This document shows positions 11,694 to 32,000 of a DNA stretch of 32,000 nucleotides, one piece after another (positions within the stretch are counted from its first letter, which is position 1; each line of letters begins with the position of its first letter). The stretch covers positions 1,380,001 to 1,412,000 of the forward strand of contig NC_022093.1 of the NCBI RefSeq assembly GCF_000446015.1, given 5' to 3'. Origin of the DNA: Thermofilum adornatum. GTDB taxonomy: Archaea > Thermoproteota > Thermoprotei > Thermofilales > Thermofilaceae. Below the pieces are notes generated by a model. It made no database searches and had not been told where the DNA came from. It saw nothing but the letters and a program-made list of their open reading frames with translations. The translations under genes and the position numbers were made by a program.

Positions 11694-11757
11694 AAAATTT
11701 CTTGTTTGCATTTCTTTGCAGAAAACAATTTCAGTCACTCTTTTTAGTGGATTATAT

Positions 11758-12473: not shown

Positions 12474-12597
12474 CGTGAAATCCTTCTCGCGTAGCAAGGT
12501 CTAGGGAAAACACAAATGTAATGCCTGAAAAATCGTGCAACATTGGACGGCTCAAGAAAAACCTTACAGGTATACACATTCGAAGTTATATAGCTTT

Positions 12598-15821: not shown

Positions 15822-15982
15822 GGCAACCGCTCAAATATTTTAGCTCTGAAATTATTTATAAATTTTTTTATGAAATATTTCTAAAATAATGCAGTTTAAA
15901 GAAAATAGATGAATCGACAATATAAGTCAACCCGAAAAAAATATAAATATCTTTTTTCAATGATTAACTTGGCGAAAAATAC

Positions 15983-17323
15983 ATGAACGAAATTATGAAA
16001 AACAATTCGGCGATAATGGTTGTAGCGATACTTCTCGTTGCTGTCATTATTGGAGCACTCGCATACTATCTTCTTAGACCTCCAGCTTCTCAGCCGGTTC
16101 CGGAAAAACGTCCATTTACAAAAATTATCTTCGCATCAACACAGCTTTCACAACCACAAGAACAGTCCTTTACAATAGGTCTTCTCTCAGCACTACTTAA
16201 CGAGAAAAACATACAGGCTGTATTTGTACCCCTTGGTTATTCAGACATGGTTTCCAAATTAAAGGCAGAAGTCTCATCAGGCTCTGTTTCAGTAAGCCTT
16301 ATAGGAGGATTGTCAACAGAAATAGATTATTTTGCAAGCCAAGGCTGGCTGGAAGATCTTTCTAGATATGGAACCTTGCCTGGAAGAACCTTTACCAGTT
16401 CTGTCATGAACGTTGTAGAGCAACAGAAGAAACAGTATGGCATACAAACATTTGTACCATGGATGACAGCAACCTTTGTTATTGTAGTCAACAACAAGAC
16501 CTTTGACTACTTGCCTGCAGGGCTTACTAAGGAAGACGTAATTAAGGGAACCGATAAATGGACGTGGGACGCGTTAGTAGCTTGGGCAAAAAACATATAC
16601 GAGAAAACAGGTGAAAAAAGGGTAGGATTACCCGCTGGTTCTGGCGGCTTGTTACACAGGCTTATCCATGGATATCTTTACGTATCATACACAGGTTATC
16701 AAGCCAGAAAATTTAACTCACCTGAAGCTGTAGCTATGTGGAACAAGTTAAAGGAACTTTGGAACTACTGTCACCCAGAAAGCACAACATGGTCTGCCAT
16801 GGCAGACCCACTTTTAAAGGGCGACGTGTGGATTGCATGGGATCATACAGCAAGAATAATCTCTGCCATTAAAACAAAGCCAGATGATTTTACTGTTGTC
16901 CCCGTTCCAAGGGGACCCGCTGGTAGAGGCTATATCCTTGTGTTGGCTGGACTAGCTATACCAAAAGGTGCACCAAATCCAGAAGCGGCATGGGAGGTTA
17001 TAGAATTCTTGACTAGACCAGAGAATCAAGCAAGGATAGCCGAAAATGTTGGCTTCTTCCCAGTAGTTAAAGAAGCTACTCCCACAATAGTGGATCCCGG
17101 AGTGAAAAAAGTAGCAGAAGGTGTCAGTACTCAGATGTCTGTAGCCGACGGCATACCCGTAGCCATACCTAGTCTTGGAGCTAAAGCAGGTGATTTTGTG
17201 GCAATGTACCGCACAGCATTTGAAAGAATAGTGCTGAAAGGGGAGGATGCGTCGACTGTACTTTCACAACTTGATCCTCAACTTCAGGCAATCTTCCGCG
17301 ATCTAAACATTCAAGCTCCCTAG
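15983..17323 (+). CDS. ABC sugar transporter substrate-binding protein (CUT1-type), TM-anchored
   Basis: 446 aa with an N-terminal anchor 'AIMVVAILLVAVIIGALAYYLL'. Its size and position upstream of MalF/MalG-like permeases fit an extracellular solute-binding family 1 protein. Confidence 0.8.
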   Translation: MNEIMKNNSAIMVVAILLVAVIIGALAYYLLRPPASQPVPEKRPFTKIIFASTQLSQPQEQSFTIGLLSALLNEKNIQAVFVPLGYSDMVSKLKAEVSSGSVSVSLIGGLSTEIDYFASQGWLEDLSRYGTLPGRTFTSSVMNVVEQQKKQYGIQTFVPWMTATFVIVVNNKTFDYLPAGLTKEDVIKGTDKWTWDALVAWAKNIYEKTGEKRVGLPAGSGGLLHRLIHGYLYVSYTGYQARKFNSPEAVAMWNKLKELWNYCHPESTTWSAMADPLLKGDVWIAWDHTARIISAIKTKPDDFTVVPVPRGPAGRGYILVLAGLAIPKGAPNPEAAWEVIEFLTRPENQARIAENVGFFPVVKEATPTIVDPGVKKVAEGVSTQMSVADGIPVAIPSLGAKAGDFVAMYRTAFERIVLKGEDASTVLSQLDPQLQAIFRDLNIQAP

Positions 17324-17349
17324 ACTATAATCTCTCTAGGGTTGAAAGC

Positions 17350-18189
17350 ATGGAACAAAAAATACGTATTTTTTTTCCTTATTTCCTAATTTTACCAACA
17401 CTTATCTATGAAGTCTTCATTAGCGCATATCCCATAGCTTATGCTATTGGAATGGCATTTTCAGGCAATCCTCCCGCTTTAGTCCAATTATTCCAAGACT
17501 TTGAGAGATTCAAGGAAGTAATTTTTTACACTATTCTGATTATAGTTACTGTTATTCCCTTACAACTCATAATCGCAATATTTGCATCGATATTTTTCTT
17601 GAACCGTTTTAGGGGCAGGGAACTCGTGCTTTACTTTTTTATTCTTCCTGTGGCTATCAGCGAAGTAGCTGGGGCGCTTTTCTGGTATACAATGTTTTCC
17701 TCTAGCGGTTTACTAAACAAACTCTTAATATGGCTAGGTGTGATGCATAATCCAGTATACTTCTTTGGATACGAATTTAGGGACAGGACACTCTTAGTTA
17801 TAGTTTTAGAAGAGGTGTGGAGGGCAACAGCAATTGTCTTTACTATTATATATGCTGGCATACAAATGATTAATAGGGAATACTTTGAGGCAGCAGATGT
17901 ATTCGGCTTTAACTTTTGGCAGAAACTTAGATACATAACGGTGCCTTTGCTCAAACCATCAATTCAAACAGCACTTATCATCAGGACGCTCTTTGCATTT
18001 CAAATTGTGGGGCCTATTCTCATCCTTGGAGGAGAGTATATAAGAGTGATGGCTACAGAGGTCGTGTACTGGTATTCTCAAAGAATGGATCCATACATCG
18101 CTAGTGCATGGGCTGTTCTCGTTGGCGTTGTAACTTTTGTACTTAGCATTCTCTATATAAGGATGTTTAGGGCAGGTGAGGGGGCATAA
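17350..18189 (+). CDS. ABC sugar transporter permease (MalF/UgpA-like)
   Basis: Six TM segments and the EAA loop 'EAADVFGFNFWQKLRYITVPLLKP'. Confidence 0.9.
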   Translation: MEQKIRIFFPYFLILPTLIYEVFISAYPIAYAIGMAFSGNPPALVQLFQDFERFKEVIFYTILIIVTVIPLQLIIAIFASIFFLNRFRGRELVLYFFILPVAISEVAGALFWYTMFSSSGLLNKLLIWLGVMHNPVYFFGYEFRDRTLLVIVLEEVWRATAIVFTIIYAGIQMINREYFEAADVFGFNFWQKLRYITVPLLKPSIQTALIIRTLFAFQIVGPILILGGEYIRVMATEVVYWYSQRMDPYIASAWAVLVGVVTFVLSILYIRMFRAGEGA

Positions 18190-18190
18190 T

Positions 18191-19000
18191 ATGAGGAAAG
18201 TTTTGGTATATCTTATCGCGTTTCTCATTTCTCTCTGGATTTTAACCCCAATAATCTACACAGTCTTGGCATCATTCGCTGATATATTAGACTATTACCA
18301 GCATTTGATTCCCCAGAAATACACGCTAAAGTATTATGAAGAGTACTGGAGACTTGGCGTTGGCGACGCGCTTGTCAGAAGCATAGAGATAGGTGTCTTA
18401 ACGGTTCTGTTAAGCTTCCTCATAGGAATACCAGCTGGCTACGCTATAGGAAGACTAAAATTTAGAGGAAGGAACTCTATTCAGCTAACTATCCTCTTCT
18501 TTAGAGTTTTACCAATTGTTGTAATGGCAGTCCCCCTGGCAGTGGTTTTCTTGAAAATCGGGTTGTATGATACAATATTTGGGGTAACGCTCGCACATAC
18601 AGCAATTGCACTTCCATTTGTCGTTCTCATAACCTCAAGCATCTTTGCAGGTGTTCCCAGGGATCTAGAAGAAGCAGGCACAGTGTTTGGTCTTAGTTCT
18701 TTACAAATATTCACAAAGATAACTCTTCCATTAGTTGCTCCCGGACTAGCAGCTGCCGGAATGTTTGCGTTCCTCATTTCCTGGAACGAGGTTGTAGCTT
18801 CAACGATCCTTACATATCTAAACAGAACTCTTCCAGCAGCTGTTTTAGCTCCCTACGTTATGGGTATGGGTGCTGCAGGTCAGTTGCCAGACCCCTACAG
18901 GTTTGCTGCGGCAACCATTATGATAATCCCTGCATTTTTATTCATGGCATATATTAGGAAATATTTGACAGCTATGTGGGGTTCTGCAGGGGTGAGATAG
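18191..19000 (+). CDS. ABC sugar transporter permease (MalG/UgpE-like)
   Basis: EAA loop 'EEAGTVFGLSSLQIFTKITLPLVAP'. ATG 18191 lies 1 nt after the upstream stop; the track ORF starts at GTG 18176. Confidence 0.9.
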   Translation: MRKVLVYLIAFLISLWILTPIIYTVLASFADILDYYQHLIPQKYTLKYYEEYWRLGVGDALVRSIEIGVLTVLLSFLIGIPAGYAIGRLKFRGRNSIQLTILFFRVLPIVVMAVPLAVVFLKIGLYDTIFGVTLAHTAIALPFVVLITSSIFAGVPRDLEEAGTVFGLSSLQIFTKITLPLVAPGLAAAGMFAFLISWNEVVASTILTYLNRTLPAAVLAPYVMGMGAAGQLPDPYRFAAATIMIIPAFLFMAYIRKYLTAMWGSAGVR

Positions 19001-19002
19001 AC

Positions 19003-20067
19003 ATGGTAAGTGTCGAACTACAGAATATTGTCAAAAAGTATAGAAATGTTACAGCTGTAGACAATGTATCCTTTAAAGTAGATCACGGTGAATTTTTTGT
19101 CCTGTTAGGTCCATCTGGATGCGGCAAGACAACTACGCTGAGAATAATAGCTGGTCTCGAAACTCCTGATAGCGGCAGAGTCTTATTTGACGGGAGAGAC
19201 GTCACCAATGTGCCAGCTAAAAACAGGAACATTGGAATGGTCTTTCAAAGCTATGCAGTTTGGCCTCATATGAAGGTCTACGATAATATTGCTCTCCCGC
19301 TTCAGATAAAGAAACTGTCAAGAGAAGAAATAGAAAAAAGAGTAAAGGCTGCCGCACAAATGGTTAATATTGCGCATTTACTTGATAGGTATCCCTTCCA
19401 GCTCTCTGGAGGTGAGAAGCAGAGAGTCGCTGTAGCTAGAGCTTTGGCCTTCGAGCCAAATATTTTGTTAATGGATGAGCCTTTAAGCAACCTCGATGCA
19501 TTATTGAGAGTCCAGGCTAGGGCTGAACTAGTTAAACTACAGAAAGAGCTCAAGATAACAACTATCTATGTTACCCACGACCAAACTGAAGCCATGGTAT
19601 TAGCAGACCGTGTTGCAGTAATGAATAAAGGCAGAATAATGCAGATAGGAACGCCTGACGAAATCTACAATAGACCAGTGAATAGATTTGTGGCACACTT
19701 TATAGGCACGCCTCCTATAAACTTCTTTGCTGGAACAGTAGAGGAAGGCTATATCAATGCGGGTTTCCTAGTTATACCATTCAAAAATATACCCCCAGGG
19801 CTTGTTGGAAAAAAGGTAACAATAGGTATAAGACCCAATGATATCTCGATCTCTCCCATTGAACAAAGCATACCTGTGAAGGGAAAACTAGTTGTTGCAG
19901 AAAATCTAGGTAGCGAATTTATTCTACACGTTGCTATCGGAGATGTTGTCCTAAGAGTTTTGTCAAAGAATAAACCAGCAAAGGAGGAGGTAACTCTATA
20001 TGTAGATAAAACAAAGCTACATATATTTAGTGAAGAAGAAACCAGAATAAACATTCTCCCAGCATAA
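19003..20067 (+). CDS. ABC sugar transporter ATPase (MalK/MsmX-like)
   Basis: Walker A 'GPSGCGKTT', Q-loop 'MVFQSYA', signature 'LSGGEKQRVAVA', Walker B 'ILLMDEPLSNLD', 'YVTHDQ', and a C-terminal regulatory (TOBE-like) domain. ATG 19003 follows the permease stop by 2 nt. Confidence 0.95.
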   Translation: MVSVELQNIVKKYRNVTAVDNVSFKVDHGEFFVLLGPSGCGKTTTLRIIAGLETPDSGRVLFDGRDVTNVPAKNRNIGMVFQSYAVWPHMKVYDNIALPLQIKKLSREEIEKRVKAAAQMVNIAHLLDRYPFQLSGGEKQRVAVARALAFEPNILLMDEPLSNLDALLRVQARAELVKLQKELKITTIYVTHDQTEAMVLADRVAVMNKGRIMQIGTPDEIYNRPVNRFVAHFIGTPPINFFAGTVEEGYINAGFLVIPFKNIPPGLVGKKVTIGIRPNDISISPIEQSIPVKGKLVVAENLGSEFILHVAIGDVVLRVLSKNKPAKEEVTLYVDKTKLHIFSEEETRINILPA

Positions 20068-20114
20068 AATATTTTTTCTTGGGTCTTATAGCTAGGCGGT
20101 CTTTAATTATGTCC

Positions 20115-21152
20115 TCATTGTAGGAGCTTGCATGCTTCACGGTAGATTGGGTCTAGGAATTCATAGTTCTTTATTATGCTCATGTCTTCGAGGCTTCTCA
20201 ATATGTTGCTTAAAACGCTGCTTGAAATCGTTGTGCCCTCTTTTTCTTCTAGGTATTCTTTAACCTGGCTCCATGTCTTTCTGCCCTCTGCTATTGCCCT
20301 GAGGACTAGCCCATATCTTCTGGGGTTGTCCCGGGTCATGTTTCTCAGCTCTTCTAGCGCAGTTCTTACGGCAATGGACTTTATCTTTTCGATGTCTGCT
20401 TCGCCCCTCGCGTAGGCGTTGCCGAAGAATGTTAGCCAGCCTGGTATCCCGTCGAAGTGTTCATAGGCCACTTCGAGGACTTCCTCACTTACCCTTAGGT
20501 TTAGCTGGGCAAAACCTTTTCTCAGAAAGTCTATAGACTGCTCCCTGCTGAGCCTCTCAAGCTTTACCTCGACATAGTATCTTCCATAAAGCGGAGACCT
20601 TGAGTCCTCTATACCAATAAAATCGTATAGCAACCCCACTTCTGAGCCAGTAAGAATAAAGGAAATATTCTTGTCATAGTCATAGGCGTGTGCAATAGCA
20701 TCCTTAAGCTCTGATGACCTCGGTCCCCTCAGCCTCTGTGCCTCATCAATAGCAATGACAATCTTTTTCTTGTTTAGCCGGTCAAACAGCTCTACTAGGC
20801 TCAGAGAGTCGCTCCCCCTCCAAGAAACCTCGACCTCGACCCCCATAACTCTTAACCCACGGATACCCATGAGCAAGTCTTTGATTTTGTCAAGGGAGCC
20901 GCTGAGCCCTTGAGCTATAAGCCGAAACAAATCGCTCCTGCTGTAGTTCCTCCTCAGCGACCTCGCATCTATGAGTACATAGGGAATATCCAGCTCGCTG
21001 AGTGCAACTCTGAGCACAGAAGTCTTTCCTATACGCCTTATACCTGTAAGCAAGATTAAGGGTCTCCCTATACTTCTCTTTAATTCTTCTATCTCTTTTT
21101 CCCTATCGTATAGGTCTTCTCTTCTCTCCTTCGGCCTCTCATCAAACAGCAA
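20115..21152 (-). CDS. Archaeal P-loop ATPase (Arch_ATPase/ATPase_2 type) with a C-terminal winged helix
   Basis: 'DREKEIEELKRSI', Walker A 'GIRRIGKTS', Walker B 'VIAIDEAQRL', and the C-terminal 'ISSSVLSNILRSLEDMSIIKNYEFLDPIY'. Only a TTG start is available: an in-frame TAG lies two codons upstream and there is no Met before Walker A. Confidence 0.85.
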   Translation of the reverse strand: MLFDERPKERREDLYDREKEIEELKRSIGRPLILLTGIRRIGKTSVLRVALSELDIPYVLIDARSLRRNYSRSDLFRLIAQGLSGSLDKIKDLLMGIRGLRVMGVEVEVSWRGSDSLSLVELFDRLNKKKIVIAIDEAQRLRGPRSSELKDAIAHAYDYDKNISFILTGSEVGLLYDFIGIEDSRSPLYGRYYVEVKLERLSREQSIDFLRKGFAQLNLRVSEEVLEVAYEHFDGIPGWLTFFGNAYARGEADIEKIKSIAVRTALEELRNMTRDNPRRYGLVLRAIAEGRKTWSQVKEYLEEKEGTTISSSVLSNILRSLEDMSIIKNYEFLDPIYREACKLLQ

Positions 21153-21311: not shown

Positions 21312-22133
21312 ATGCAGGAATTTTCAAGAGTAATTGATTTTCATGTTCACCCACCTCTTGATGCTGAAGATAAGGGCGTCAGTGCAAAGAGCATCGCTGA
21401 GGAGCTACTTGACTTAATGGACAAGAGTGGGGTCTCGAAGGCAGTCATACTGCCAATAGCCCCATAGATTTCCAACAACTACATATACAAGATAGTCGAA
21501 GTGGAGCCGAGAAGGCTAGTAGGCTTTGCATCGGTTGTTCCCAACCCCGCGGATAAGGCGGTGAAGGAGCTAGAGAGGGCTGTCTCGGACTTGGGCTTGA
21601 GGGGGCTTAAGCTTCATCCAGGCATGCAGGGCTTCTGCCTAAGGAGCACGCACGTCTGGAAGGTTCTGAGGAGAGCGGGCGAGCTAGGAATACCGGTAAT
21701 CTTGCACGCCCTATGGATGGATGAATCAAGCCTTTACTTCAAGAGTCCATACAAGCCTTGGGAAAACCCCCTAGAAGACTACGCCCTCCTACCTTACATT
21801 GCACCTGAGACAAGATTGATCTACGCACACATGGGAGGCCTCCTCCACTTTAAAGAAGTCTTCAACATTGCTACGCACAGGAACGTATACCTAGATACGT
21901 CGTACAGCATTATCACTATTGCTCGTGAGGTGGGTCTCGAAAGGCTAGCTCATTACATCAAGTTGCTTGGAGCAGAGAAGATCCTGTTTGGAAGCGACTT
22001 GGTTCCAGGCCTAACCCCCGAAGATTTAGGGCCTAAAAAGCAGATCGAGCTTATCAATAGACTCCCCCTAAGCCAAGAGGAAAAAGAAAAAATACTATTT
22101 AAAAATGCCCTACAGCTAATGGGAACTTCCTGA
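21312..22133 (+). pseudogene. Amidohydrolase_2-type TIM-barrel metal-dependent hydrolase interrupted by one in-frame TAG
   Basis: ATG 21312 opens 'MQEFSRVIDFHVHPPLD...SKAVILPIAP', which carries the HxH metal motif. A TAG follows at 21465-21467. The same frame then continues 'ISNNYIYKIVEVEPRRLVGFASVVPNP...' into track ORF 21501-22133 ('KLHPGMQGF', 'HMGG', 'FGSD'). Confidence 0.7.
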
Positions 22134-22197
22134 AAAGCTATTGTGCTCGGTTAATAGTCACGAACCTTGCTACGTTAGGGAAGAAATAAAAAGGAAG

Positions 22198-22253
22198 CTT
22201 GGGATTTTCAATACCAAGACTTTAAATATTTCTTGGGATTCTAAATACCAAGA
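22198..22253. promoter_or_regulatory. Two copies of a 22-bp dyad element flanking the TTTAAATATT box of the 22253 ATPase gene
   Basis: CTTGGGATTTTCAATACCAAGA (22198-22219) and CTTGGGATTCTAAATACCAAGA (22232-22253) are 20/22 identical. Each is a near-palindrome (CTTGGgATT-N3-AATaCCAAG). Copy 2 ends on the A of the ATG. Confidence 0.55.
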
Positions 22254-23575
22254 TGGAATCACTGAATCCATGGTGGAAGGGCAAAGAGGCTTTCGAAGAA
22301 GACGAGGACTACAAAAAGTGGAGGCAAAGCAGTGTAAGATGGGTGCCCCAGCTATTAGAAGAAATTGAGCTAGAGGCTCCTGCTCTTCATTTCCTTTTTG
22401 GTCCACGACAAGTCGGCAAGACGACACTTTTGAAGCTTCTTATTGGAAAACTTCTTCAAGTAGTTGATAATCCCAGGGCAATTTTCTACTACAGATGTGA
22501 CTTGCTCGCCGACTACAAGGAACTCAATAGTGTGCTCATGGAATACTTGAAAATAAAAAGGAACGAGGTTCTCCGGGTCTCGTTTATTTTTCTAGACGAG
22601 GTTACCTTCCCGAGGGAGTGGTATAGAGCAATCAAATACATGGTTGACAGGGGCTATCTTCAAAACGATATAGTGGTTCTCACGGGCTCTCTAAGCATGT
22701 ATGCGAAAAGAGAAGTAGAAACATTCCCAGGTAGGAGGGGTCGAGGCAGGGACTACGTTTTATACCCGTTAAGCTTCAGGGAATACATAAAGGTTTCAAG
22801 GCCAGACCTATACGGAAAACTCGAGGAAATCAGAGACTTTAGCCCGAAAGAAATACGCGAGAAGTGCTTGAAGCTCATCCCTTGGAGGGAAGAACTAAAC
22901 AAACTGTTTGAAACATACCTAGTAACTGGAGGCTTCCCACTGGCAGTGAAGACCTACCTAGAGAATAGAAGCATAAGCAGAGAGGTGAAGGAGACTTATC
23001 TTTCAGCATTTCTCTACGACCTGGCAAAACTAAGGAGAAACGAGGCAATAGCCAAAAGAGTCATAAAAGCCATAATCGAGAAGCTACCCTCTCCGGTGAG
23101 TCTCAACAGCATAGCAAAAGAGTTCGAAATAAGGTCACACAAAACAGTTTTCCAATACTTAGACCTCTTCGAGAAACTATTCATCGCCAAGAACCTCTAC
23201 TTCGTGGACCCCGACAAGGCTGTTGAGGTATTCTACAAGGAGAGAAAAGTACATCTCACGGACCCATTCCTCTACGAGGTCTTCTCGGAGTGGTGCCACG
23301 TCCAAAAGCCCGACGAGTCAAAAATAGTGGAAAGCGTGGTAGCAACACATCTAGCCAGAAGGTTCAGGGTAGGCTACTGGAGAAACAGAACAGAGATTGA
23401 TGTGATCCTCCCCGACCTTTCACTGGGATTCGAGATTAAATGGGCCGAAAAAACAAAATTATACCCCAAGAGCATAGGAAAAATCAAAAACATAGTCTAC
23501 CTCACAAAAGAAGAATTCTCAGACGAGCCACTTGCAGTCCCCACAAGCGTGTTCCTGAGCTGTCTAAAATTATAG
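22253..23575 (+). CDS. AAA+ ATPase of the COG1373 type (AAA_14 + DUF4143) with a C-terminal PD-(D/E)XK-like module
   Basis: Walker A 'GPRQVGKTT', Walker B 'FIFLDEVTF', a central helical/wHTH region, and the C-terminal 'TEIDVILPDLSLGFEIKW' (D...ExK). Confidence 0.85.
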   Translation: MESLNPWWKGKEAFEEDEDYKKWRQSSVRWVPQLLEEIELEAPALHFLFGPRQVGKTTLLKLLIGKLLQVVDNPRAIFYYRCDLLADYKELNSVLMEYLKIKRNEVLRVSFIFLDEVTFPREWYRAIKYMVDRGYLQNDIVVLTGSLSMYAKREVETFPGRRGRGRDYVLYPLSFREYIKVSRPDLYGKLEEIRDFSPKEIREKCLKLIPWREELNKLFETYLVTGGFPLAVKTYLENRSISREVKETYLSAFLYDLAKLRRNEAIAKRVIKAIIEKLPSPVSLNSIAKEFEIRSHKTVFQYLDLFEKLFIAKNLYFVDPDKAVEVFYKERKVHLTDPFLYEVFSEWCHVQKPDESKIVESVVATHLARRFRVGYWRNRTEIDVILPDLSLGFEIKWAEKTKLYPKSIGKIKNIVYLTKEEFSDEPLAVPTSVFLSCLKL

Positions 23576-23654: not shown

Positions 23655-24932
23655 ATGAAGAAGCCAGTCAAGATAGCCATCGCTACAATCCTTGTTATAT
23701 CCCTAACAATCCTTGCAGGTCTCTCAGAAGCCAAGAAGCCCGAGTCACAGATCCCAAGGCTTGAGGCACTAAACATCACGGTTTACCCCCAGTGGCTAAA
23801 GCTTAGACAAACCCAGGCAAACATGTCAAGCTTCAGCTTCACCTTCGAGAGCACAGCTACTGAACCAATGAGCCTCCAAAACGTCACAGTCCTCCTCTCT
23901 TCTCCGCAGGGCATCAAAGTGGAAAACATCTCCCTTATTCTGGGAATTAATGGCACCCGACTGGTGCTCCCAGCTGTTTTCTCAGAGAGAAATCACACCA
24001 TCATCCTGATGGCTAGCGGGATAAACCTAACGGTTCCAGCCAGAAAACAAATCGAAATAAAGATAGCATACATCCCCGAAGTCGATGCATCAGTACTCAC
24101 AAGCAAAACAGCCAACATGACATGTACACTCCTACTCGACGGCTACAAGCTAACAAACACCATTAACCTGTGGACAAACGCGTCTCTAAAGACGGTGGCC
24201 AAAGGCCAGGGAACACAAATAAACATCTATACAAATGTCACGCTAACCGGAAACAATTCTCTCATACTCAGAGCTACAACAGAAAACCCCCTAGCCCTCT
24301 GCATAACAGGAGCAGACATACTTGTAGCCACTAATCCTGCAAGCAAGGACTTTTCCCTGACACAAGACGGCAACTGCCTCAAAATAACTGGCGCAGGCAG
24401 GCTACCACAGACAATCAATGTCCAAGCCCAACTAAAAGTCCAGAAACAAGACTCACCGATAGCTACGATAAGCATGCAACTAAAGGTGGGAAACAGAACA
24501 ATAACAGTGAAACAAACAACAACAGAGGCCGGCAAGATATTATCTATACGTAAACCCTACATTATACCATACATCCTCACACTAACCACGCCAGAACCAA
24601 TCAACGGGACCCTCACACTCATAATAGGAGAAACAACGAGACAAACAAGGCTCACAATGGGAAAAGCCACCCTAATACTCCCAGAAGCCTTCTGGCCAAT
24701 ACTGACCCCAATACCAATACAAGCAACAGAAATAACGCTTGACGGCTCCCAGACAACCTTCTACGCTGTCCAGGACCAGCCAGAAACAATAATCCCCGGA
24801 ATAGCAACCTTAGCACTGGTTGCCATAATTGCTCTTGCCACGGGATTTATCTTGTATAGAGAAAGGAAAAGAAACAAGAAGAAAAATCCTCCACCAATCA
24901 CTGAATTTATAGAAGAGATAGAGATAAGCTAG
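23655..24932 (+). CDS. Surface-exposed, probably heavily N-glycosylated protein with a signal peptide and a C-terminal TM anchor
   Basis: Signal-like 'IAIATILVISLTILAGLSEA', C-terminal TM 'GIATLALVAIIALATGFILY' followed by 'RERKRNKKK'. I count 13 N-x-S/T sequons. The protein is Thr-rich and predicted beta-rich. Confidence 0.65.
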   Translation: MKKPVKIAIATILVISLTILAGLSEAKKPESQIPRLEALNITVYPQWLKLRQTQANMSSFSFTFESTATEPMSLQNVTVLLSSPQGIKVENISLILGINGTRLVLPAVFSERNHTIILMASGINLTVPARKQIEIKIAYIPEVDASVLTSKTANMTCTLLLDGYKLTNTINLWTNASLKTVAKGQGTQINIYTNVTLTGNNSLILRATTENPLALCITGADILVATNPASKDFSLTQDGNCLKITGAGRLPQTINVQAQLKVQKQDSPIATISMQLKVGNRTITVKQTTTEAGKILSIRKPYIIPYILTLTTPEPINGTLTLIIGETTRQTRLTMGKATLILPEAFWPILTPIPIQATEITLDGSQTTFYAVQDQPETIIPGIATLALVAIIALATGFILYRERKRNKKKNPPPITEFIEEIEIS

Positions 24933-24945
24933 ACATATGGGTAGG

Positions 24946-25046
24946 AATAATAACAATGTTATCATTAATAAAAACAAAGTTATTACATGAAATCTCTTTT
25001 TAAAATATAAGAATAACAAACTTATTATCAATAATAACATTGTTAT
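24946..25046. promoter_or_regulatory. Pair of 17-nt elements, each containing a 13-bp perfect palindrome, in the AT-rich region upstream of 25150
   Basis: AATAATAACAATGTTAT (24946-24962) and AATAATAACATTGTTAT (25030-25046). The core is ATAACA-N-TGTTAT. The centres are 84 bp apart. Weaker relatives (AATAA-N5/8-TTATT) lie between them. Confidence 0.4.
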
Positions 25047-25149
25047 AACAAAAAATCTACAGTTCAAAAGCCGCAAAACTTGGCACATAGGACACACATG
25101 CTTACATCAACTTTAAAAGGATAGTTCACCCACAAAAATTAGGAGTGAG

Positions 25150-25992
25150 ATGCTGTCAAAAGAAGAAAAACTCAGATTTCTCAACACACTGCGAGAAGAC
25201 GAAGAATTTAGACTAGCGGTAGCTGGGCTCCTCGGCTTAAACACTATACTCGAAGAGCTGAAAAAGCTCCGGCAAGACTTCCAAGCCCACTTAGAACTAG
25301 AAGAAAAAAGATGGGAAGAAAACAGAAAACGATGGGAGGAGAACAATAAAAGATGGGAAGAGAACGACAAGAAATGGGAGCAAGTTTTCAAAAAACTCGA
25401 AGAACACAGCAAGATACTAGAGCAACACAGCGAAATCCTAGAGCAACATAGCAAAATACTTGAAGAGCAAAGAAAGCTCTTAGAAGAGCATAGGAAAGTC
25501 CTGGAGGAACACACAAAGATTCTACAGCAACACAGCAAAATGCTGGAGGAGCACTCTCGGCAAATCCAAGAGCAAGGTAAATCACTAGCAGAGCTCAAAG
25601 TTGTTATAGGCTCCATGGGGAGAAGGTGGGGTTCAGACCTAGAACGCACAGTGCTAGAGATCTATAGGCAAGCACTCGAGACAAAGGGAATCAAGCCTGA
25701 AAACGTAGCCAAATTTACCTATGAAGACGTCGAGGGCAAATATTACCGGAGAGGCGCAAAAATAGAGGTAGACATCTATATGCACAACGACACAACCATA
25801 CTCATAGAGGTCAAATCGAGGGCGGAGCTAGAAGACGTCGAATGGTTCCTCGACAAGGCAGGAATAGTGGAGAAGATCATCGGCAGAAAAGCAGACAAGC
25901 TCATCATCGTCGCTGTAAACATAGACAAGGACGCATATGAGAGGGCCCAAGCCCTAGGCATAGACGTAGTCGCTGGTGCAGTAATCGAGTAG
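25150..25992 (+). CDS. Coiled-coil protein with a C-terminal PD-(D/E)XK-like nuclease domain (paralog A; possibly the DUF3782 + archaeal PDDEXK architecture)
   Basis: The N-terminal 'LREDEEFRLAVAGLLG' is shared with 30988-31815. About 90 aa of strict heptads follow. The C-terminal 'KIEVDIY...TILIEVKS...KLIIVAVNID...GIDVV' fits a D...ExK restriction-endonuclease-like core. An SD-like AGGAGTGAG precedes the ATG. Confidence 0.7.
   Translation: MLSKEEKLRFLNTLREDEEFRLAVAGLLGLNTILEELKKLRQDFQAHLELEEKRWEENRKRWEENNKRWEENDKKWEQVFKKLEEHSKILEQHSEILEQHSKILEEQRKLLEEHRKVLEEHTKILQQHSKMLEEHSRQIQEQGKSLAELKVVIGSMGRRWGSDLERTVLEIYRQALETKGIKPENVAKFTYEDVEGKYYRRGAKIEVDIYMHNDTTILIEVKSRAELEDVEWFLDKAGIVEKIIGRKADKLIIVAVNIDKDAYERAQALGIDVVAGAVIE
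25303..25572 (+). repeat. In-frame 21-bp (heptad) repeat arrays: 4 x (K/R)RWEEN(x) then 8 x LEEH(S/R)K(I/V)
   Basis: Trp falls at aa 55, 62, 69 and 76. His falls at aa 86, 93, 100, (Gln107), 114, 121, 128 and 135. The DNA units differ mostly at wobble positions. Confidence 0.9.
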
Positions 25993-26086
25993 GTCCCGGG
26001 AAGGTTTTCCCACAGCCTATAGAAGTGTTTAAAAGTAATTGTCTTGCTGTGCAACAAATATATAGAACCTTTATGAGTGAGTTTAT

Positions 26087-26971
26087 GTGCCTAGACCACG
26101 ATTGCTCGAGCTCCACCTGACGGTTCTCGTGGACGATTATTCCGGCATGACAAGGCTACTTGCAGAGCACGGCCTAAGCATCCATGTCAAAGCAGTCTAC
26201 GACAATGGGGAAACATATAGGCTCCTCTTTGACACTGGCCAGACAGGAGAAGTATTGCTCAGGAATGCACAGGGGCTAAAAATACTGCTCGAAGACATCG
26301 ATGCAGTTGTCCTCTCTCATAGGCACTACGACCACGCCGGCGGCTTGCCCCAAATACTAGACAAGATCAAAGCCAAGCCTCTAGTCGCACACCCAGACGT
26401 CGTAAAGCCCAGCTACTCCTCGCGAGAAGGCTTCATGCGCTTCAACCTGGCCCTCACTAGCACCCAGTGGGAAAAAATAATCACCAGCCTAGAGCCAGTC
26501 CTAACCAGGAAGCCCCTCGAGCTAGCTCCAGACATATGGTTCCTAGGAGAAATACCCAGGACCAGCGACAACTCCTACGCAACCAGGGGGTTCTATACAC
26601 AGGAAGCCGGGGAAGTAGTCCCAGACAAGCTACTGGACGACACGGGCATAGCCATAAAGCTCCAAGACACGGCAATAGTAATAGCTGGATGCAGCCACTC
26701 AGGAATAGCGAACATAGCCCGACAAGCAAAACAACTAACAGGAGCACAGCAAATAGCCATAATAGGCGGACTGCACACGGGCCAAGCCACAGACCAAGAA
26801 CTAGAGACAATAACAAGGGAACTCGCCTCGCTCAATACCACCGAAGTCCACGCAGGCCACTGCACAGGGCTCAGAGGAGAAATAGCCCTCCACAACCAAT
26901 GGAAACAATCGCTGCACAGGATCCACAGCGGCTACACAGCCATCTTTAAGCTACAAGAGAGAGAAAAATAA
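26087..26971 (+). CDS. MBL-fold metallo-hydrolase, COG1237 type (cytoplasmic paralog)
   Basis: 'VLVDDY...HGLSIHV...LLFDTGQ', HxHxDH as 'SHRHYDHAGG', 'AGCSHSGIAN', 'GGLHTG', 'HAGHCTG'. GTG start. Confidence 0.85.
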   Translation: MPRPRLLELHLTVLVDDYSGMTRLLAEHGLSIHVKAVYDNGETYRLLFDTGQTGEVLLRNAQGLKILLEDIDAVVLSHRHYDHAGGLPQILDKIKAKPLVAHPDVVKPSYSSREGFMRFNLALTSTQWEKIITSLEPVLTRKPLELAPDIWFLGEIPRTSDNSYATRGFYTQEAGEVVPDKLLDDTGIAIKLQDTAIVIAGCSHSGIANIARQAKQLTGAQQIAIIGGLHTGQATDQELETITRELASLNTTEVHAGHCTGLRGEIALHNQWKQSLHRIHSGYTAIFKLQEREK

Positions 26972-27152
26972 AACCAGACCCCTTTACATACCAAAAATGC
27001 CCTTCGAGACAACTTCTGAAGATGCACGGTATTAACTTAAATCTCCAGAGCAAATCCCCCAGAAGCTTTATTTTGATATGTTTCCACGTCTCAGAGAAAA
27101 GGTAGCCCATTCGCCTTGCTAAGTTTAAAATACTACTTTTTGTTAAAAGTAA

Positions 27153-27401
27153 TTGAGAAGTTTGAGGTTCAGCGTAGTTATTGAAAAAGACGAGGATGGT
27201 TACTATGTCGCCTACGTCCCAGAGCTACCCGGCTGTCACACGCAGGCTAAAACCCTAGACGAGCTCCTGGAAAGGGTCAAGGAAGCCATCGAACTTTATC
27301 TTGAAGTTGAGGGGTCATCTGTGGAAATGGGAAGAGAACTCGTCAGCATACAGTTCATTGAGGTCGGTGTTAGTGAGCTTAAGACCCGTTCCAGCCGATA
27401 A
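27153..27401 (+). CDS. hicB: HicB-family antitoxin (UPF0150-type, minimal)
   Basis: 'FSVVIEKDEDGYYVAYVPELPGCHTQAKTLDELLERVKEAIELYLE' is the HicB N-terminal fold signature. The start is TTG (27153 or 27162), and TTTAAAAT lies about 25 nt upstream. Confidence 0.85.
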   Translation: MRSLRFSVVIEKDEDGYYVAYVPELPGCHTQAKTLDELLERVKEAIELYLEVEGSSVEMGRELVSIQFIEVGVSELKTRSSR

Positions 27402-27594
27402 GGTCATAAAGGTTCTTATGAAAGTAGGCTTTAAACCAGTAAGGCAAAAAGGGGGCCACATTATTCTTAAACATGAGGACGGAAGAGTAACCGTAATACT
27501 TGTCCATAAAGGCGAGGAGATCGGTAGAGGCTTACTCACTCGGATTATTAAAGAAGCAGGTCTAACAAGGGAAGAGTTGCTCAAATTATTTTAG
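27373..27594 (+). CDS. hicA: HicA-family mRNA interferase toxin
   Basis: '(M)SLRPVPADKVIKVLMKVGFKPVRQKGGHIILKHEDGRVTVILVHKGEEIGRGLLTRIIKEAGLTREELLKLF' matches HicA/YcfA along its full length, including the catalytic His in 'GGH'. The track ORF (27301) is over-extended; the start is probably GTG 27373 or 27367, overlapping hicB. Confidence 0.85.
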   Translation: MSLRPVPADKVIKVLMKVGFKPVRQKGGHIILKHEDGRVTVILVHKGEEIGRGLLTRIIKEAGLTREELLKLF

Positions 27595-27660
27595 GAAACC
27601 TAAACCTATAAAAATATACATGCCAACATCTCTTGAGACATCGTCCAAAACTATTTATAC

Positions 27661-28524
27661 ATGACAAAGTTACTTTACTATGTGTATAAATGGATTTTTC
27701 CCATTGCAATTCTTATTGTATGCATAGGTGTCTTTGGAGCCCTACTCTACATGCTGGGAAGAGCCTCCAATGTTCCCGAAAAACATGCTGGCAACGAGTC
27801 TCGGGAGTATGCCGGGTATGTGCGCCTAGTTGTCCTCGTAGATAACAATCCCTACAAGGAAGGCCTAGAGACGGCGTGGGGCCTCGCAGTCTATCTCGAG
27901 ACCGGTCAGACCAAGCTGCTCTTCGACACGGGGCCGGACCCCGGCGTACTCGAGAGAAACGCCGAGAAGCTAGGAATAGACCTAAGCAAGATAGACTTCA
28001 TAGTTATCAGCCACCCGCACGGGGACCATACAGGGGGCCTGAAGCTCCTTTCTTCTATTAAGCCCGGGCTCCGAGTATATATACCGCCAGACCGAAGCCT
28101 CAAAAACTATGTCCAAAGCCTCGGCCTAGAGCCCATACAGGTAAACAGCACTGTCGAGGTGGCGAAGGGGGTATTCGTCGTCGAGCCCCTTTATGGACCA
28201 CCCGTCGAGGAGGCGCTCGCCGTCAAGACCAGCAAGGGACTAGCCATACTGGTCGGCTGCAGCCACCCCGGGGTTGTGAACCTCGTTAACCAGGCAGTTA
28301 GAGACCTAGGCATGAAGCCATACCTCGTGCTCGGGGGATTCCACATGTTCGGGGCACCTCTCCAGGATATTAAAGAAGTCGCTTCACGACTAGTGGAAAT
28401 TGGGGCCGAGAAGATCTACCCTATACACTGTAGCGGCGACACAATCAGGAACTACCTCGCAAACAGCTACAAGGACAAATACGGCGACGGGGGAGCAGGG
28501 CTAGAAATCGATATACAAGGATAG
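27661..28524 (+). CDS. MBL-fold metallo-hydrolase, COG1237 type, with an N-terminal TM anchor (paralog of 26087-26971)
   Basis: TM 'IFPIAILIVCIGVFGALLYML', then 'VVLVDNN...WGLAVYLE...LLFDTGP', 'SHPHGDHTGG', 'VGCSHPGVVN', 'GGFHMFG', 'PIHCSGD'. Confidence 0.85.
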   Translation: MTKLLYYVYKWIFPIAILIVCIGVFGALLYMLGRASNVPEKHAGNESREYAGYVRLVVLVDNNPYKEGLETAWGLAVYLETGQTKLLFDTGPDPGVLERNAEKLGIDLSKIDFIVISHPHGDHTGGLKLLSSIKPGLRVYIPPDRSLKNYVQSLGLEPIQVNSTVEVAKGVFVVEPLYGPPVEEALAVKTSKGLAILVGCSHPGVVNLVNQAVRDLGMKPYLVLGGFHMFGAPLQDIKEVASRLVEIGAEKIYPIHCSGDTIRNYLANSYKDKYGDGGAGLEIDIQG

Positions 28525-28623
28525 CTCGACATAAAACCAGCTTCAAAGGTATGAATCCTTGGATTTAACAGGATTAAATAGTTAGTTTCGTTATATATTG
28601 GGAAGATATAACCAGGAGAGAAT

Positions 28624-28923
28624 ATGCATGATCTAAGAGTTTCTAGGAGATTTGTAAGCCATGTTATAAAAAGACACAAGGATTGGATAGAAATGTTAGG
28701 GCTAGAGACAGGGGAGGAAATTACTAATTTTATAAGGCAAGTCCTTAAGAACCCTGACAAAATTTATAAAGATAAAATCAGAGACGACGTCACATATCTT
28801 CTTAAAAGGCTAGATTCATACTTTCTTTGCGTAGTTGTTGTTGGAAAAATTGCTGTAACAGCATACCTTATAAGCCAAGAAAAATATGATAAATATAGGA
28901 AAAATAGATGGGTGGAGAGGTGA
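28624..28923 (+). CDS. Putative toxin (DUF4258/BECR-fold-like small RNase candidate)
   Basis: 99 aa. 'VSRRFVSHVIKRHKDW...EITNFIRQVLKNPDKIYKD...YLLKRL...FLCVVVV...VTAYL' resembles the H..KRH plus 'nPD.I' plus beta-core layout of small BECR/DUF4258-type toxins. It sits 7 nt upstream of a DUF2283-like gene, with a strong SD (GGAGAGGTGA) between them. Confidence 0.45.
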   Translation: MHDLRVSRRFVSHVIKRHKDWIEMLGLETGEEITNFIRQVLKNPDKIYKDKIRDDVTYLLKRLDSYFLCVVVVGKIAVTAYLISQEKYDKYRKNRWVER

Positions 28924-28930
28924 ATAGAAA

Positions 28931-29212
28931 ATGGGAATAGCTTCTCTCTTAGAGCTTGATTTGAAAAAAATACTAGACCTCATTGAGAGGAAGTACAACA
29001 TTAAATTGCCAAAGAAGGTTATAGAGGTCTACCTAGACGACACCCATGACCTGCTATTTGTAAGGTTCAAAGAGCCCCAAGGAATAGAGGCCGGCGAACC
29101 CCTCCCAACAAGGACCATAGCAACGATATTTATCGAAGAGAAAACAGGCGAAATAACCGCCCTCGAAATAGTAGGATTAAGCGACCTACTAGAAGAGCTA
29201 GCAATGGCATAG
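28931..29212 (+). CDS. DUF2283-like small protein (putative antitoxin)
   Basis: 'VIEVYLDDTHDLLFVRFKEP...ATIFIEEKTGEITALEIVGLS' matches the DUF2283 pattern (Y-D-x-x-x-D-x-L-Y-I/V-x-F ... G-x-I-x-G/A-I/L-E-I). Confidence 0.6.
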   Translation: MGIASLLELDLKKILDLIERKYNIKLPKKVIEVYLDDTHDLLFVRFKEPQGIEAGEPLPTRTIATIFIEEKTGEITALEIVGLSDLLEELAMA

Positions 29213-29400
29213 CTTTTTTCTCCTCAGAGTCAGCACACGAGGTTTTCAAGATACTACAAAATACTAACCTAAAACCTTACTTTTTGGGTGCCTACCCTGC
29301 CATATTTCCTTTTTCCCCGGAGCTCACATTTAACCCAGGTATATTCCCTCAAAAACCATCGGTCTCATGTTATGGGACATCCAAAATGAAATGAAAAAAT

Positions 29401-29418
29401 TTATAGTCTAGACTATAA
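29401..29418. promoter_or_regulatory. 18-bp perfect palindrome overlapping the TATA-like box of the 29435 ATPase gene
   Basis: TTATAGTCTAGACTATAA (29401-29418) was checked base by base as its own reverse complement. TTTATA at 29400-29405 lies about 32 nt upstream of the ATG. Confidence 0.5.
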
Positions 29419-29434
29419 TAGTTTTAACTATATT

Positions 29435-30778
29435 ATGAAACATCTAATTGACAGGAGGGAAGAGCTTAAGGCCCTTGATGAGTGGTATAACAAGGGAAGA
29501 GTAGCCCTTATATTTGGAAGGAGGCGAGTCGGAAAAACCAGGCTCGTCCTAGAGTTCATAAAGAATAAGAGAGCTGTCTATCTCCTAGCCGCGGATTCGA
29601 CCCTCGAATACAACCTTGCAAAGTTTTCCGAGGAATTGTCAGAGAGATTCAGCGTTCCAGGCTTGAGGTTCAGAGACTTCGAGGAGCTTTTCCGCTTCAT
29701 CGAGGGCAGAAGCGACGTAGACATAGTAGTCATAGACGAGTTCGGGTACCTAGTAAAGGCGGGGGCTCTTCCACAGTTCCAACGCATCGTGGACATCATC
29801 CTTGACACAAAGAAACTAGTATTGACTGGCTCAACAATCTCAGCTATTGAGTCTAAACTCCTGGGATACAGGAGCCCACTCTATGGACGCCTAGACCTCG
29901 TAAAAAAGATCCAGCCACTCCGCTTCCACCACTTGTTCGAATGGTTCCCCGGCGCAACCTTTGACGGGGCAATAGCTGTCTACGGGGCCACGGGCGGGGT
30001 TCCACGCTACCTTGAATTCTTCTCGAAGTGTACAGGAGACGAAGTCGAAAAAGTAATGCTTAACCCCGACATATTGCCCTTCCGCGACGCGAAGCTCATA
30101 ATAGAGGAGGAACTGCCCGAGCCGCACCGCTATTTCCAGATACTCGAGGCCATTGCAGGCGGCAGGACAAGGCTAAGCGAGATCTCACACGTTACAGGCA
30201 TAGAGCCACACAAGCTACCATACTACCTAGGCGTCCTCAGGGACCTCGGCTACGTCTACTACGAAAAGCCCCTGCTCGAGGGCAAACGCGGCACATACAG
30301 GGTCAAGGAGCCTTATTTCGCCTTCTGGCTCAGGTTCATATACCCGTTCTACGAGGAGATAGAGTCGGGACTAAAGACACACGCCGAAACATATTTCCGG
30401 AAAAACTTCAACACGTACCTAGGCCAAGTCTTCGAACAAGTCGCAGGAGAACTAGTCCTCCAAAAAATCAAACACACGAGGGCAGGCCGGTGGTGGAAGG
30501 GAGACACAGAGATAGACCTCATAGCAATAGACGAGGAAACAGCCAAAGCCTACTTCATAGAATTCAAATACAGCTCCGACGTAGACCCAGAAACCGAGCT
30601 AGACAAGCTCAAAAAGAAGACAACACTATTCGGCTGGAAAAAAGACACAAGGAAAGAAGAATACATACTCGTCGCAAAATCATTCAAGAGACAGTCAAGC
30701 CAAGCCACAACAATAGACCAACAAAAACTCCACAAAATAGCACTAGAAACCCTAAACAACGAGAGAGAAAAATATTAA
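29435..30778 (+). CDS. Archaeal P-loop ATPase (COG1672 / Arch_ATPase) with a C-terminal DUF234-type PD-(D/E)XK-like module
   Basis: 'DRREELKALDEW', Walker A 'GRRRVGKTR', Walker B 'VVVIDEFGYL', wHTH 'YFQILEAIAGGRTRLSEISHVTGIEPHKLPYYLGVLRDLGYV', and the C-terminal 'WWKGDTEIDLIAIDEETAKAYFIEFKYS' (D...ExK). Confidence 0.85.
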   Translation: MKHLIDRREELKALDEWYNKGRVALIFGRRRVGKTRLVLEFIKNKRAVYLLAADSTLEYNLAKFSEELSERFSVPGLRFRDFEELFRFIEGRSDVDIVVIDEFGYLVKAGALPQFQRIVDIILDTKKLVLTGSTISAIESKLLGYRSPLYGRLDLVKKIQPLRFHHLFEWFPGATFDGAIAVYGATGGVPRYLEFFSKCTGDEVEKVMLNPDILPFRDAKLIIEEELPEPHRYFQILEAIAGGRTRLSEISHVTGIEPHKLPYYLGVLRDLGYVYYEKPLLEGKRGTYRVKEPYFAFWLRFIYPFYEEIESGLKTHAETYFRKNFNTYLGQVFEQVAGELVLQKIKHTRAGRWWKGDTEIDLIAIDEETAKAYFIEFKYSSDVDPETELDKLKKKTTLFGWKKDTRKEEYILVAKSFKRQSSQATTIDQQKLHKIALETLNNEREKY

Positions 30779-30987
30779 CAAGCACCCGCTCGGCCTTATA
30801 AAGAGCACTTTAGGTTGGTCTCTAAAGAAACAATTAGCACACGCTATTAAATAGTAGAAGATATACAAAAGATGATGTTGTTTTACTTCTCGGGAAAAAA
30901 TGTGGCAAGCTCCCAAGGAATAGATCTGGAACTGACCACCTTAAATATATATCAGAGTGATGATTATAGAAAATAGAGAGTGGTCAA

Positions 30988-31815
30988 ATGATGGAGCTAA
31001 GCGAGCTCAAAACAAAGATACTAGCCCTGCTCAAAACAGACGAAGAATTCCGCTACGCAGTAGCAGGCATGATTGGCTACGACGAGATACTAAAAAGACT
31101 CCAGAAACACGACGAGAAGTTTGAAGAAATAGTCTCTATACTTAATAGGCACGAGGAGATACTTGCAAGACACGAAGAGAAATTCAAAGAAATACTGGCA
31201 CAGCTCAAAGAAATCCGGGAATCCCAAAGCAGGCTAGAAAACCGCGTTAACTCTTTAGACAACCGTGTAGACTCTCTAGAAAAAGGCGTAAACTCCTTAG
31301 ATAAACGTGTGGATTCTCTAGAGAAACGGATAGACTCTTTGGAGAAAAGTGTAAACTCCTTAGAGAAAAAAGTCGACTCTTTAGATAAACGTGTAGGCTC
31401 CTTAGAGGAACGCGTCGATTCATTGGCAAGCGCGATGATAGCAGGCTTCGCCGAGCTAAGCAAGTTCGCAGGCATAACCTTTGAAGAATTCGTAAGAAAA
31501 TTCCTAACAGCAAGCCTCCAAAAGTCAGGCCAGATACCCCAGGGATTAGAGCTCACAAGAAAAGTCATAGACAGCGAAGAAATAGACATCTTCCTAGAAG
31601 ACCCCCTCATAGTTGGCGAAGTAACAGCACACGCAGATACACCCCAGGAAGCCGACAAGCTCCTCAAAAAAGCAGAACTAGCAAAAACAAGGTACGCAAA
31701 GGAGCCCAAAAAAATACTAGTAATCCTCACAGCCAAAAGAGACGTAGCCCAAGAAATACAGAGAAAAGCAAAAGAGAAAAACATAGAACTAATAATAGGA
31801 AGAATAATAGACTAG
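30988..31815 (+). CDS. Coiled-coil protein with a C-terminal PD-(D/E)XK-like domain (paralog B; ExK lysine replaced)
   Basis: 'LKTDEEFRYAVAGMIG' is shared with paralog A. It has His heptads (H41, H55, H62) and nine 'xVDSLEK' heptads. The C-terminal 'EEIDIF...LIVGEVTA...KILVILTAKRD...NIELI' aligns with the core of paralog A, but reads EVT where A has EVK. Confidence 0.7.
   Translation: MMELSELKTKILALLKTDEEFRYAVAGMIGYDEILKRLQKHDEKFEEIVSILNRHEEILARHEEKFKEILAQLKEIRESQSRLENRVNSLDNRVDSLEKGVNSLDKRVDSLEKRIDSLEKSVNSLEKKVDSLDKRVGSLEERVDSLASAMIAGFAELSKFAGITFEEFVRKFLTASLQKSGQIPQGLELTRKVIDSEEIDIFLEDPLIVGEVTAHADTPQEADKLLKKAELAKTRYAKEPKKILVILTAKRDVAQEIQRKAKEKNIELIIGRIID
31234..31425 (+). repeat. In-frame 21-bp repeat array (9 heptads, L-[ED]-x-[RGSK]-[VI]-[DNG]-S), with 42-bp super-periodicity in the first units
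   Basis: Ser-Leu falls at aa 89/90, 96/97 and onward to 145/146. The first four units alternate LExxVNS / LDxRVDS, and their Leu codons alternate CTA/TTA. Confidence 0.9.
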
Positions 31816-32000
31816 CCCCAAAAGCCCTAAGCTCCCTCAACACGACGACATATCAAAATCTAAAAAGCCCTGAGAAAATCTCTAAAACTTTTATCTTTTA
31901 AGTCCCCTAATGAACTTCTTTCGCTGACAGAACCACTGTATTCTTACCCTTAATCCAATGGAAAGAAAGCTTTTTGACTATATGCTGAAGTAATAAAAGG

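Follow-up and report, generated by a model that had tools for sequence, protein, structure and literature searches.

Proteins of the DUF1626/COG5493 family are predicted PD-(D/E)XK nucleases with an N-terminal coiled coil, in which the lysine of motif III is often replaced by threonine and compensated by a basic helix (PMC1913061). The stalks of the crenarchaeal members have been studied as unusual coiled coils (PMC4786415), and the family is associated with PaREP1/HEPN and MNT genes (PMC3710099). In the literature we found no report of a COG5493 member characterised for activity. Two single-gene defence candidates of the PADLOC collection, PDC-S27 and PDC-S01, are abundant in Archaea, and validation is still pending for most such candidates (PMC12988326). 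Members of all these families lie close together in a 32,000-nucleotide stretch of Thermofilum adornatum (contig NC_022093.1, positions 1,380,001 to 1,412,000; hereafter the window), where nine consecutive genes occupy positions 25150-31815 of the plus strand: the COG5493 nuclease NucA, the metallo-beta-lactamase-fold (MBL) hydrolase MBL1, HicB, HicA, a second hydrolase MBL2, a BECR-like toxin, its 93-residue partner, an ATPase with a DUF234 domain, and a second COG5493 protein, NucB. A previous examination of the letters alone (the sequence-only reading) had proposed this block as a candidate novel conflict or defence island bracketed by the two nucleases.

All nine open reading frames (ORFs) were found where that proposal had placed them, and its description of the gene mix as defence-island-like also holds, since toxin–antitoxin and defence-candidate genes abound in the region, which varies between close strains. 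We nevertheless consider it likely that the block belongs to a more extensive accessory region, hypervariable and composed of independent cassettes, and does not constitute one multi-gene system. This interpretation is carried by the observed gene content, the family membership of the products, their modular presence or absence among strains, and the lack of co-occurrence elsewhere. Gene calls were based on Pfam, PADLOC hidden Markov models (HMMs), PHROGs and BLASTP, together with the comparison of strain loci and distant loci.

Variation of the block between close strains

Presence and absence among related strains demonstrate that the block is variable between close Thermofilum contigs. The full set of nine genes is present in CP007493 and three near-identical contigs, with differing flanks. 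Locus L026, in which NucA is 90% identical, is devoid of window positions 27390-28556, which hold hicA and MBL2; what is left there is hicB on its own and a vestige of hicA. Past the window end, L026 also lacks most of UbiA and the 197-residue gene that follows it. In L035, hicB has diverged, hicA is absent and MBL2 carries a frameshift, while a deletion joins the initial 16 codons of the toxin, with the reading frame preserved, to the partner gene. Up to 22110, loci L027 and L028 match the window at 95-97% identity, and beyond this point at 74-76%. They keep only the DUF4143 ATPase that precedes the block, NucA and MBL1, the latter two at about 75% nucleotide identity, and are without the 425-residue membrane protein, HicBA, MBL2, the toxin pair and the DUF234 gene. 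Their NucB ortholog is located 7 kb further downstream and is cut down to 193 residues. The components are not gained or lost together; in L026, L027 and L035 the changes are piecemeal.

These comparisons also indicate that 25150-31815, the extent originally assigned to the island, does not delimit it. The variable zone starts near 22.1 kb, where a left recombination breakpoint can be placed at 22110..22200 (identity to L027 is 96% up to 22110 and 76% from 22201). Since divergence and rearrangement persist to the end of the 21-kb locus, the zone runs well beyond position 32000, by more than 8 kb. The downstream part contains PaREP1, a HepT–MNT fusion, an AAA_15 and DUF3226 pair, and DUF433 with DUF2283. 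In CP007493 (L002) the AAA_15/AAA_21 ATPase gene, followed by the gene of the DUF3226 protein, occupies 16713-18515, about 4.7 kb past the window end. This segment, which is replaced by other genes in L026, has the PaREP1, HepT–MNT and DUF433 with DUF2283 genes nearby, and the island therefore continues downstream.

Within the block, intergenic gaps of 66-222 nucleotides, each with an AT-rich, TATA-like element, lie ahead of NucA, MBL1, hicB, MBL2, the toxin, the DUF234 gene and NucB. Because such a gap precedes each of these seven genes, the arrangement suggests seven separate transcription units with their own putative promoters. The best account would be that unrelated, independently transcribed cassettes have been gained or lost one by one, accumulating in a hypervariable region.

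Distant neighbourhoods and competing readings

The NucA family is large, with 848 matches, and spans Thermoproteota. We compared 13 window proteins by tblastn with 21 non-conspecific loci of this family, including up to 10 kb of flanking sequence. MBL, HicAB, toxin-pair and DUF234 genes were found within 10 kb of the NucA-family gene in 0/21 loci. For the NucB family, the neighbours of 59 metagenome loci were clustered, the nucleases themselves falling into 46 subclusters at ≤85% identity. The commonest neighbour is a HEPN-type gene (HEPN, HepT–MNT or PaREP1), present within 3 kb in 17 of the 46 subclusters, in agreement with PMC3710099. Neighbouring MBL genes occur in two lineages only, and DUF234 neighbours are confined to the close strains, L044 excepted. 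Clustering of conserved neighbourhoods thus never recovered the block outside close strains; only the HicB/HicA and toxin/partner pairings survive. Over the 21 NucA-family and about 50 NucB-family loci outside these strains, the genes essentially never co-occur, an outcome that the sequence-only reading had itself named as refuting its proposal, and a single novel system is not supported.

An ATPase_2 protein with an MCM-type winged helix, encoded at 20115-21152 of the minus strand, recurs a few kb from NucA-family genes in several genera (L005, L010, L019, L021, L094). This recurrence may merely reflect the abundance of both families.

Several observations weigh against independent cassettes. 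The nine genes share one orientation and are compact, which would fit co-regulation too, and most of the metagenome loci are short, so that absent neighbours are partly uninformative. One distant locus (L044, 760-5636) has a 24%-identical DUF234-like ATPase gene directly upstream of a nuclease paralog; its coiled-coil nuclease gene appears to be split by two TnpB-like ORFs. Moreover, an MBL gene adjoins a COG5493 nuclease twice, as NucA followed by MBL1 in the window and as an MBL2-like with a NucB-like gene in the lineage of L082 and L085. By a rough estimate of our own, about 0.3 MBL–nuclease adjacencies would be expected by chance; the two instances are a weak hint of association and do not amount to evidence.

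The original proposal, in which the nine genes constitute one new multi-component defence system bounded by rod-nucleases, could appeal to the same co-orientation and compactness, to the four near-identical contigs that keep the full block, and to the several parts that match defence-candidate HMMs. The strain series largely refutes it, with piecemeal loss in L026, L035 and L027. Across about 70 nuclease loci at greater distance the genes were not seen together, other genera have MBL1 on its own, and separate AT-rich regions lie upstream of the genes. Taken together, these results render such a system highly improbable. A smaller unit, a two-gene module of a COG5493 nuclease and a COG1237 MBL existing in two ancient copies (NucA–MBL1 and MBL2…NucB) into which the toxin–antitoxin pairs and DUF234 were inserted later, seems unlikely for different reasons. 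It would account for the NucA–MBL1 adjacency, which is kept in L027/L028 at about 75% nucleotide identity, for the 61%-identical MBL2 homolog placed divergently beside a NucB-type nuclease in L082/L091 and L085/L089, and for the similar divergence of the two paralog pairs (23% and 28%). However, the latter four loci are syntenic relatives and represent one event, gene orientation is unlike between the instances, MBL genes are found in 0/21 NucA-family loci, and no nuclease gene neighbours the MBL1 orthologs at 57-60% identity. Upstream of a 58%-identical NucA ortholog lie housekeeping genes, and the 251 nucleotides between this ortholog and the downstream end of its contig contain no MBL start. 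A more specific version, a Thermofilaceae-specific COG5493 and COG1237 two-component conflict module in two ancient copies, with its stalk tuned by heptad slippage and the toxin–antitoxin and DUF234 genes as later insertions, appears quite unlikely.

It is also conceivable that the region derives from a plasmid or virus that once integrated and has since decayed, given its strain-specific presence, the sharp identity breakpoint at about 22.1 kb, and toxin–antitoxin modules of the kind typical of mobile elements. Nevertheless, the ORF list, the tRNA scan and the repeat scan of the window were all empty of integrases, tRNAs and terminal or flanking repeats, as the sequence-only reading had noted, and no relatives of the nuclease were found among 2.9 million viral contigs. 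The PHROGs matches comprise HicA/HicB, generic metal-dependent-hydrolase entries for the MBL proteins, and coiled-coil noise; genes for virions, replication or integration do not figure among them, and the variation consists of many small indels and not of one insertion. We therefore regard this origin as very unlikely. An Rfam scan of the window gave zero matches, and no NCBIfam match reached its cut-off. The reading that we favour remains that of independent cassettes in a hypervariable region, and we describe these in turn below.

Composition of the proposed cassettes and their surroundings

NucA (25150..25992) is a coiled-coil PD-(D/E)XK nuclease of COG5493, with Pfam matches to DUF3782 (41.6 bits; cut-off 24.4) and PDDEXK_10 (37.8 bits; cut-off 21.2). 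Its catalytic motif is intact as D208...E220-x-K222, residues that are invariant or nearly so in the alignments, and the AlphaFold2 model of its tail matches EndoMS/NucS, AF1548, Card1 and Can2 at probability 1.0. NucB (30988..31815) gives coiled-coil noise only in the Pfam scan. Its membership is based on BLASTP with NucA (E 4e-12) and on a full-length match to the PADLOC family C3a181 (E 1.7e-22). In the alignment, NucB carries E-V-T in place of E-x-K, followed by KLLKKAELAK, an exact fit to the described threonine variant with its basic helix. The suggested paralogy is borne out by an end-to-end alignment of the two proteins at 23% identity (E 4e-12). The same applies to their common head (EDEEFRxAVAG) and tail and to the differing central cassettes, which derive from unrelated arrays of 21-nucleotide tandem repeats: RWEENxK and HSKILEE heptads in the NucA stalk (25299..25554) and LExRVDS heptads in the NucB stalk (31235..31415), both on the plus strand.

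In both repeat arrays, detected by a repeat scan, the copy number is strain-variable. The NucA orthologs of the strains are 280, 266 and 259 residues long, with indels that are multiples of 7 residues, and the NucB orthologs, at 275, 254 and 247 residues, likewise differ by whole heptads. These differences imply that the stalk length may shift by slippage of the 21-nucleotide repeats, with the coiled-coil register kept. The accessible portions of PMC1913061, PMC4786415 and PMC3710099 make no mention of such a heptad-number polymorphism. Each nuclease would act as a stand-alone protein, in which a long stalk of heptads connects a short head at the N-terminus with a C-terminal PD-(D/E)XK domain of presumed DNase activity. 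Two long ORFs in antisense (25113-25649 and 31077-31784) were dismissed as by-products of the heptad repeats.

The structural significance attributed to the bracketing by the two paralogs could not be sustained. There is no DNA-level similarity between the NucA and NucB genes, so that they cannot act as recombination boundaries, and the NucB ortholog of L027 is both displaced and shortened. Further COG5493 paralogs occur nearby in other strains (L003, L027). The abundance of COG5493 in these genomes explains the bracketing most simply, and it looks incidental.

Both nucleases match C3a181, a cluster built on Tpen_1359 with 3 occurrences and a low association score of 25.55. With so few occurrences and such a score, the 'diadenylate cyclase' label of this cluster was rejected for NucA and NucB, which are PD-(D/E)XK nucleases. 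A role as a type III CRISPR accessory gene was likewise discarded, as the window contains no CRISPR array and its scanned ORFs give no cas-specific match. The PADLOC matches to JetC, LmuB, DruC, ZorA and PbeC reflect coiled-coil composition only. A CoCoNuT or McrBC-type system was also set aside, since Pfam and PADLOC detect no McrB-family GTPase or McrC-type nuclease domain in the nine genes.

Immediately upstream of NucA, between its start and the stop of the membrane-protein gene, four copies of the palindrome AATAACAWTGTTAT are located at 24949..25047 with a spacing of 21/42/21. The window contains 11 matches to AATAACAWTGTTAT against 0.98 expected, and the array is kept in L001, L002, L026 and L035, close strains in which the membrane-protein gene is present. 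An operator array or a terminator would both be conceivable.

HicB (82 residues; 27153..27401) and HicA (73 residues; 27373..27594) both score above the Pfam cut-offs (PF15919, 43.5 bits, and PF07927, 63.5 bits, against a cut-off of 27 in each case), and HicB also matches a HicB-like PHROG. The two are small co-oriented genes with a 29-nucleotide overlap, and would form a type II toxin–antitoxin pair with a predicted RNase toxin.

The second toxin–antitoxin-like unit consists of a putative BECR-fold (PBECR-like), RNase-like toxin (28624..28923) and its 93-residue partner (28931..29212), the presumed antitoxin. The BECR-like assignment is upheld by structure, the best matches of the model (pLDDT 94) being BECR toxins, and not by the Pfam gathering scores, as PBECR3 and PBECR2 fall below the cut-off (24.2 vs 30 bits and 22.7 vs 27.1 bits). 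PBECR2 is matched, again sub-threshold, by 12 of the 22 members of the toxin family. In the Protein Data Bank (PDB), the top match of the model is CdiA-CT (7m5f_C, probability 0.99), followed by HigB, with weak E-values; phage PBECR-type domains in BFVD are matched with TMq 0.68 (E 1.4e-4). Conservation is complete or nearly so at D50, T79, Y81, R95 and W96, and two N-terminal histidine positions appear in the family consensus. The family is tiny: an exhaustive search among 1.84 billion sequences found 40 representatives at E < 1e-3, and this search was needed because a word-index search for homologs returned only two near-identical relatives.

At two distant loci whose toxins are 36% and 32% identical, the overlapping next gene is a homolog of the 93-residue protein (46% identity, E 4e-19, and 31%, E 1e-11, respectively), and the partner is kept beside the toxin in L029, L030 and L031. 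The predicted toxin and its 93-residue partner are a genuine two-gene cassette of a small, previously unnamed family. The partner had been called DUF2283-like, a label that does not stand at the level of Pfam, where no DUF2283 match appears even at E 10; BLASTP against a DUF2283 protein was also negative. Since hhalign with three DUF2283 proteins gives a plausible register (probability 30%, E 5e-4), it is possibly related to that family.

The ATPase_2, winged helix-turn-helix and DUF234 protein (29435..30778) was correctly identified as a predicted ATPase-nuclease. Besides Pfam ATPase_2 and DUF234, it has a full-length match to PDC-S27 (PDLC04984, E 2.4e-28, residues 1-427), and it may function as a single-gene ATPase and PD-(D/E)XK unit. 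The AAA_14 and DUF4143 ATPase upstream of the block (22253..23575, plus strand), which matches Pfam and PDC-S01 (PDLC04787, E 7.8e-36) and is 76% identical at the nucleotide level in L027, would be its cousin.

MBL1 (26087..26971) and the membrane-anchored MBL2 (27661..28524) are COG1237-type hydrolases, both matching Pfam Lactamase_B and carrying the HxHxDH motif. Relatives of MBL1 in the PDB are 2p4z and 3h3e. The proposed duplication is substantiated by their identity of 28%. MBL2 begins with a hydrophobic anchor, a feature shared by its 61%-identical homologs. Identity among the 1678 homologs of MBL1 tracks taxonomy (74-97% in Thermofilum, 57% in Infirmifilum, and about 50% in Desulfurococcaceae and Sulfolobales), and its orthologs in Infirmifilum uzonense, a Sulfolobales metagenome-assembled genome and contig L093 are solitary genes with metabolic or repair surroundings. 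Since identity tracks taxonomy and the contexts elsewhere are metabolic, MBL1 looks like a lineage-conserved, apparently vertically inherited stand-alone enzyme that happens to be located here, and not like a defence gene. For MBL1, the claim that the block holds no housekeeping function is not established. The literature on COG1237, MJ0301 and 7DCK offered nothing useful.

The 425-residue membrane or surface protein (23655..24932, plus strand) is strain-variable. It has hydrophobic N- and C-terminal segments and a single weak, sub-threshold Pfam match to DUF2627. Its richness in N-x-S/T sequons makes it a likely surface glycoprotein, another variable gene at the island edge. Near the left breakpoint, the Amidohydro_2 gene at 21501-22133 is split or truncated, with 210 residues against 275-279 in L026 and L027, and L001 has lost most of it and also part of the adjacent ATPase gene. 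Further upstream, three contigs of related Thermofilum lack a 7.6-kb sugar block at 12474-20121 (GHL6 glycosidase, TrmB regulator and sugar ABC transporter) and join 12473 straight to 20122, which points to a strain-specific insertion or deletion of sugar-utilisation genes. A HEPN and MNT pair adjoins this block at 11677-12473, and in strains without the sugar block it lies about 5 kb from NucA, as is usual for the COG5493 family.

Comparison with described systems

The statement that the locus matches no named system is only partly true, as its parts match HicAB, the PADLOC candidates PDC-S27 and PDC-S01, and COG5493/C3a181. The PADLOC check matched single-gene candidates only (PDC-S27, PDC-S01 and C3a181). 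NucA and NucB have the same architecture as the crenarchaeal COG5493 proteins (PDDEXK_10, formerly DUF1626, with DUF3782) and show no essential difference from them; they are two further members. The DUF234 and DUF4143 proteins share with PDC-S27 and PDC-S01 the ATPase and PD-(D/E)XK architecture over full-length HMM matches, although these single-gene candidates leave the other genes of the block unexplained. The HicBA pair agrees with the HicAB type II system in both domains and in its small overlapping genes; it differs in its gene order, antitoxin before toxin, and in the shortness of HicB, whose Pfam match is confined to N-terminal residues 6-59.

The BECR-like unit resembles the BECR-fold families (PBECR2/3, DUF4258, RelE/HigB and CdiA-CT) in predicted fold, size, conserved His/Asp/Thr/Tyr/Arg residues and the order of toxin, then partner. 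Unlike them, it scores below the Pfam gathering thresholds, its family is very small, and its partner is not a Pfam-detectable DUF2283 protein. MBL1 and MBL2 belong to the same family as the COG1237 hydrolases 2p4z and 3h3e and share their HxHxDH motif, MBL2 differing by its membrane anchor. Some COG1237 members are annotated as a methanopterin-pathway synthase, which we treat as a source label only.

What is new here is modest, namely the small BECR-fold toxin–partner family outside Pfam and the heptad-count polymorphism in a widespread, uncharacterised nuclease family. These points leave the current understanding of archaeal defence unchanged. As an archaeal hot spot of variation in which steps of toxin–antitoxin decay are dated, the locus is a clear case, and it demonstrates how the mix and shared orientation of genes can by themselves be taken for a 'system' when a comparison of strains reveals a patchwork. 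With defence islands in general, the region shares a strain-variable cluster of toxin–antitoxin and defence-candidate genes, for which defence or addiction roles may be presumed. The term denotes a genomic neighbourhood and not a mechanism, and the region also holds MBL1, UbiA and a surface protein, which are apparently unrelated to defence. In this comparison, the locus is a defence and toxin–antitoxin island of an ordinary archaeal type, composed of genes whose kinds are known.

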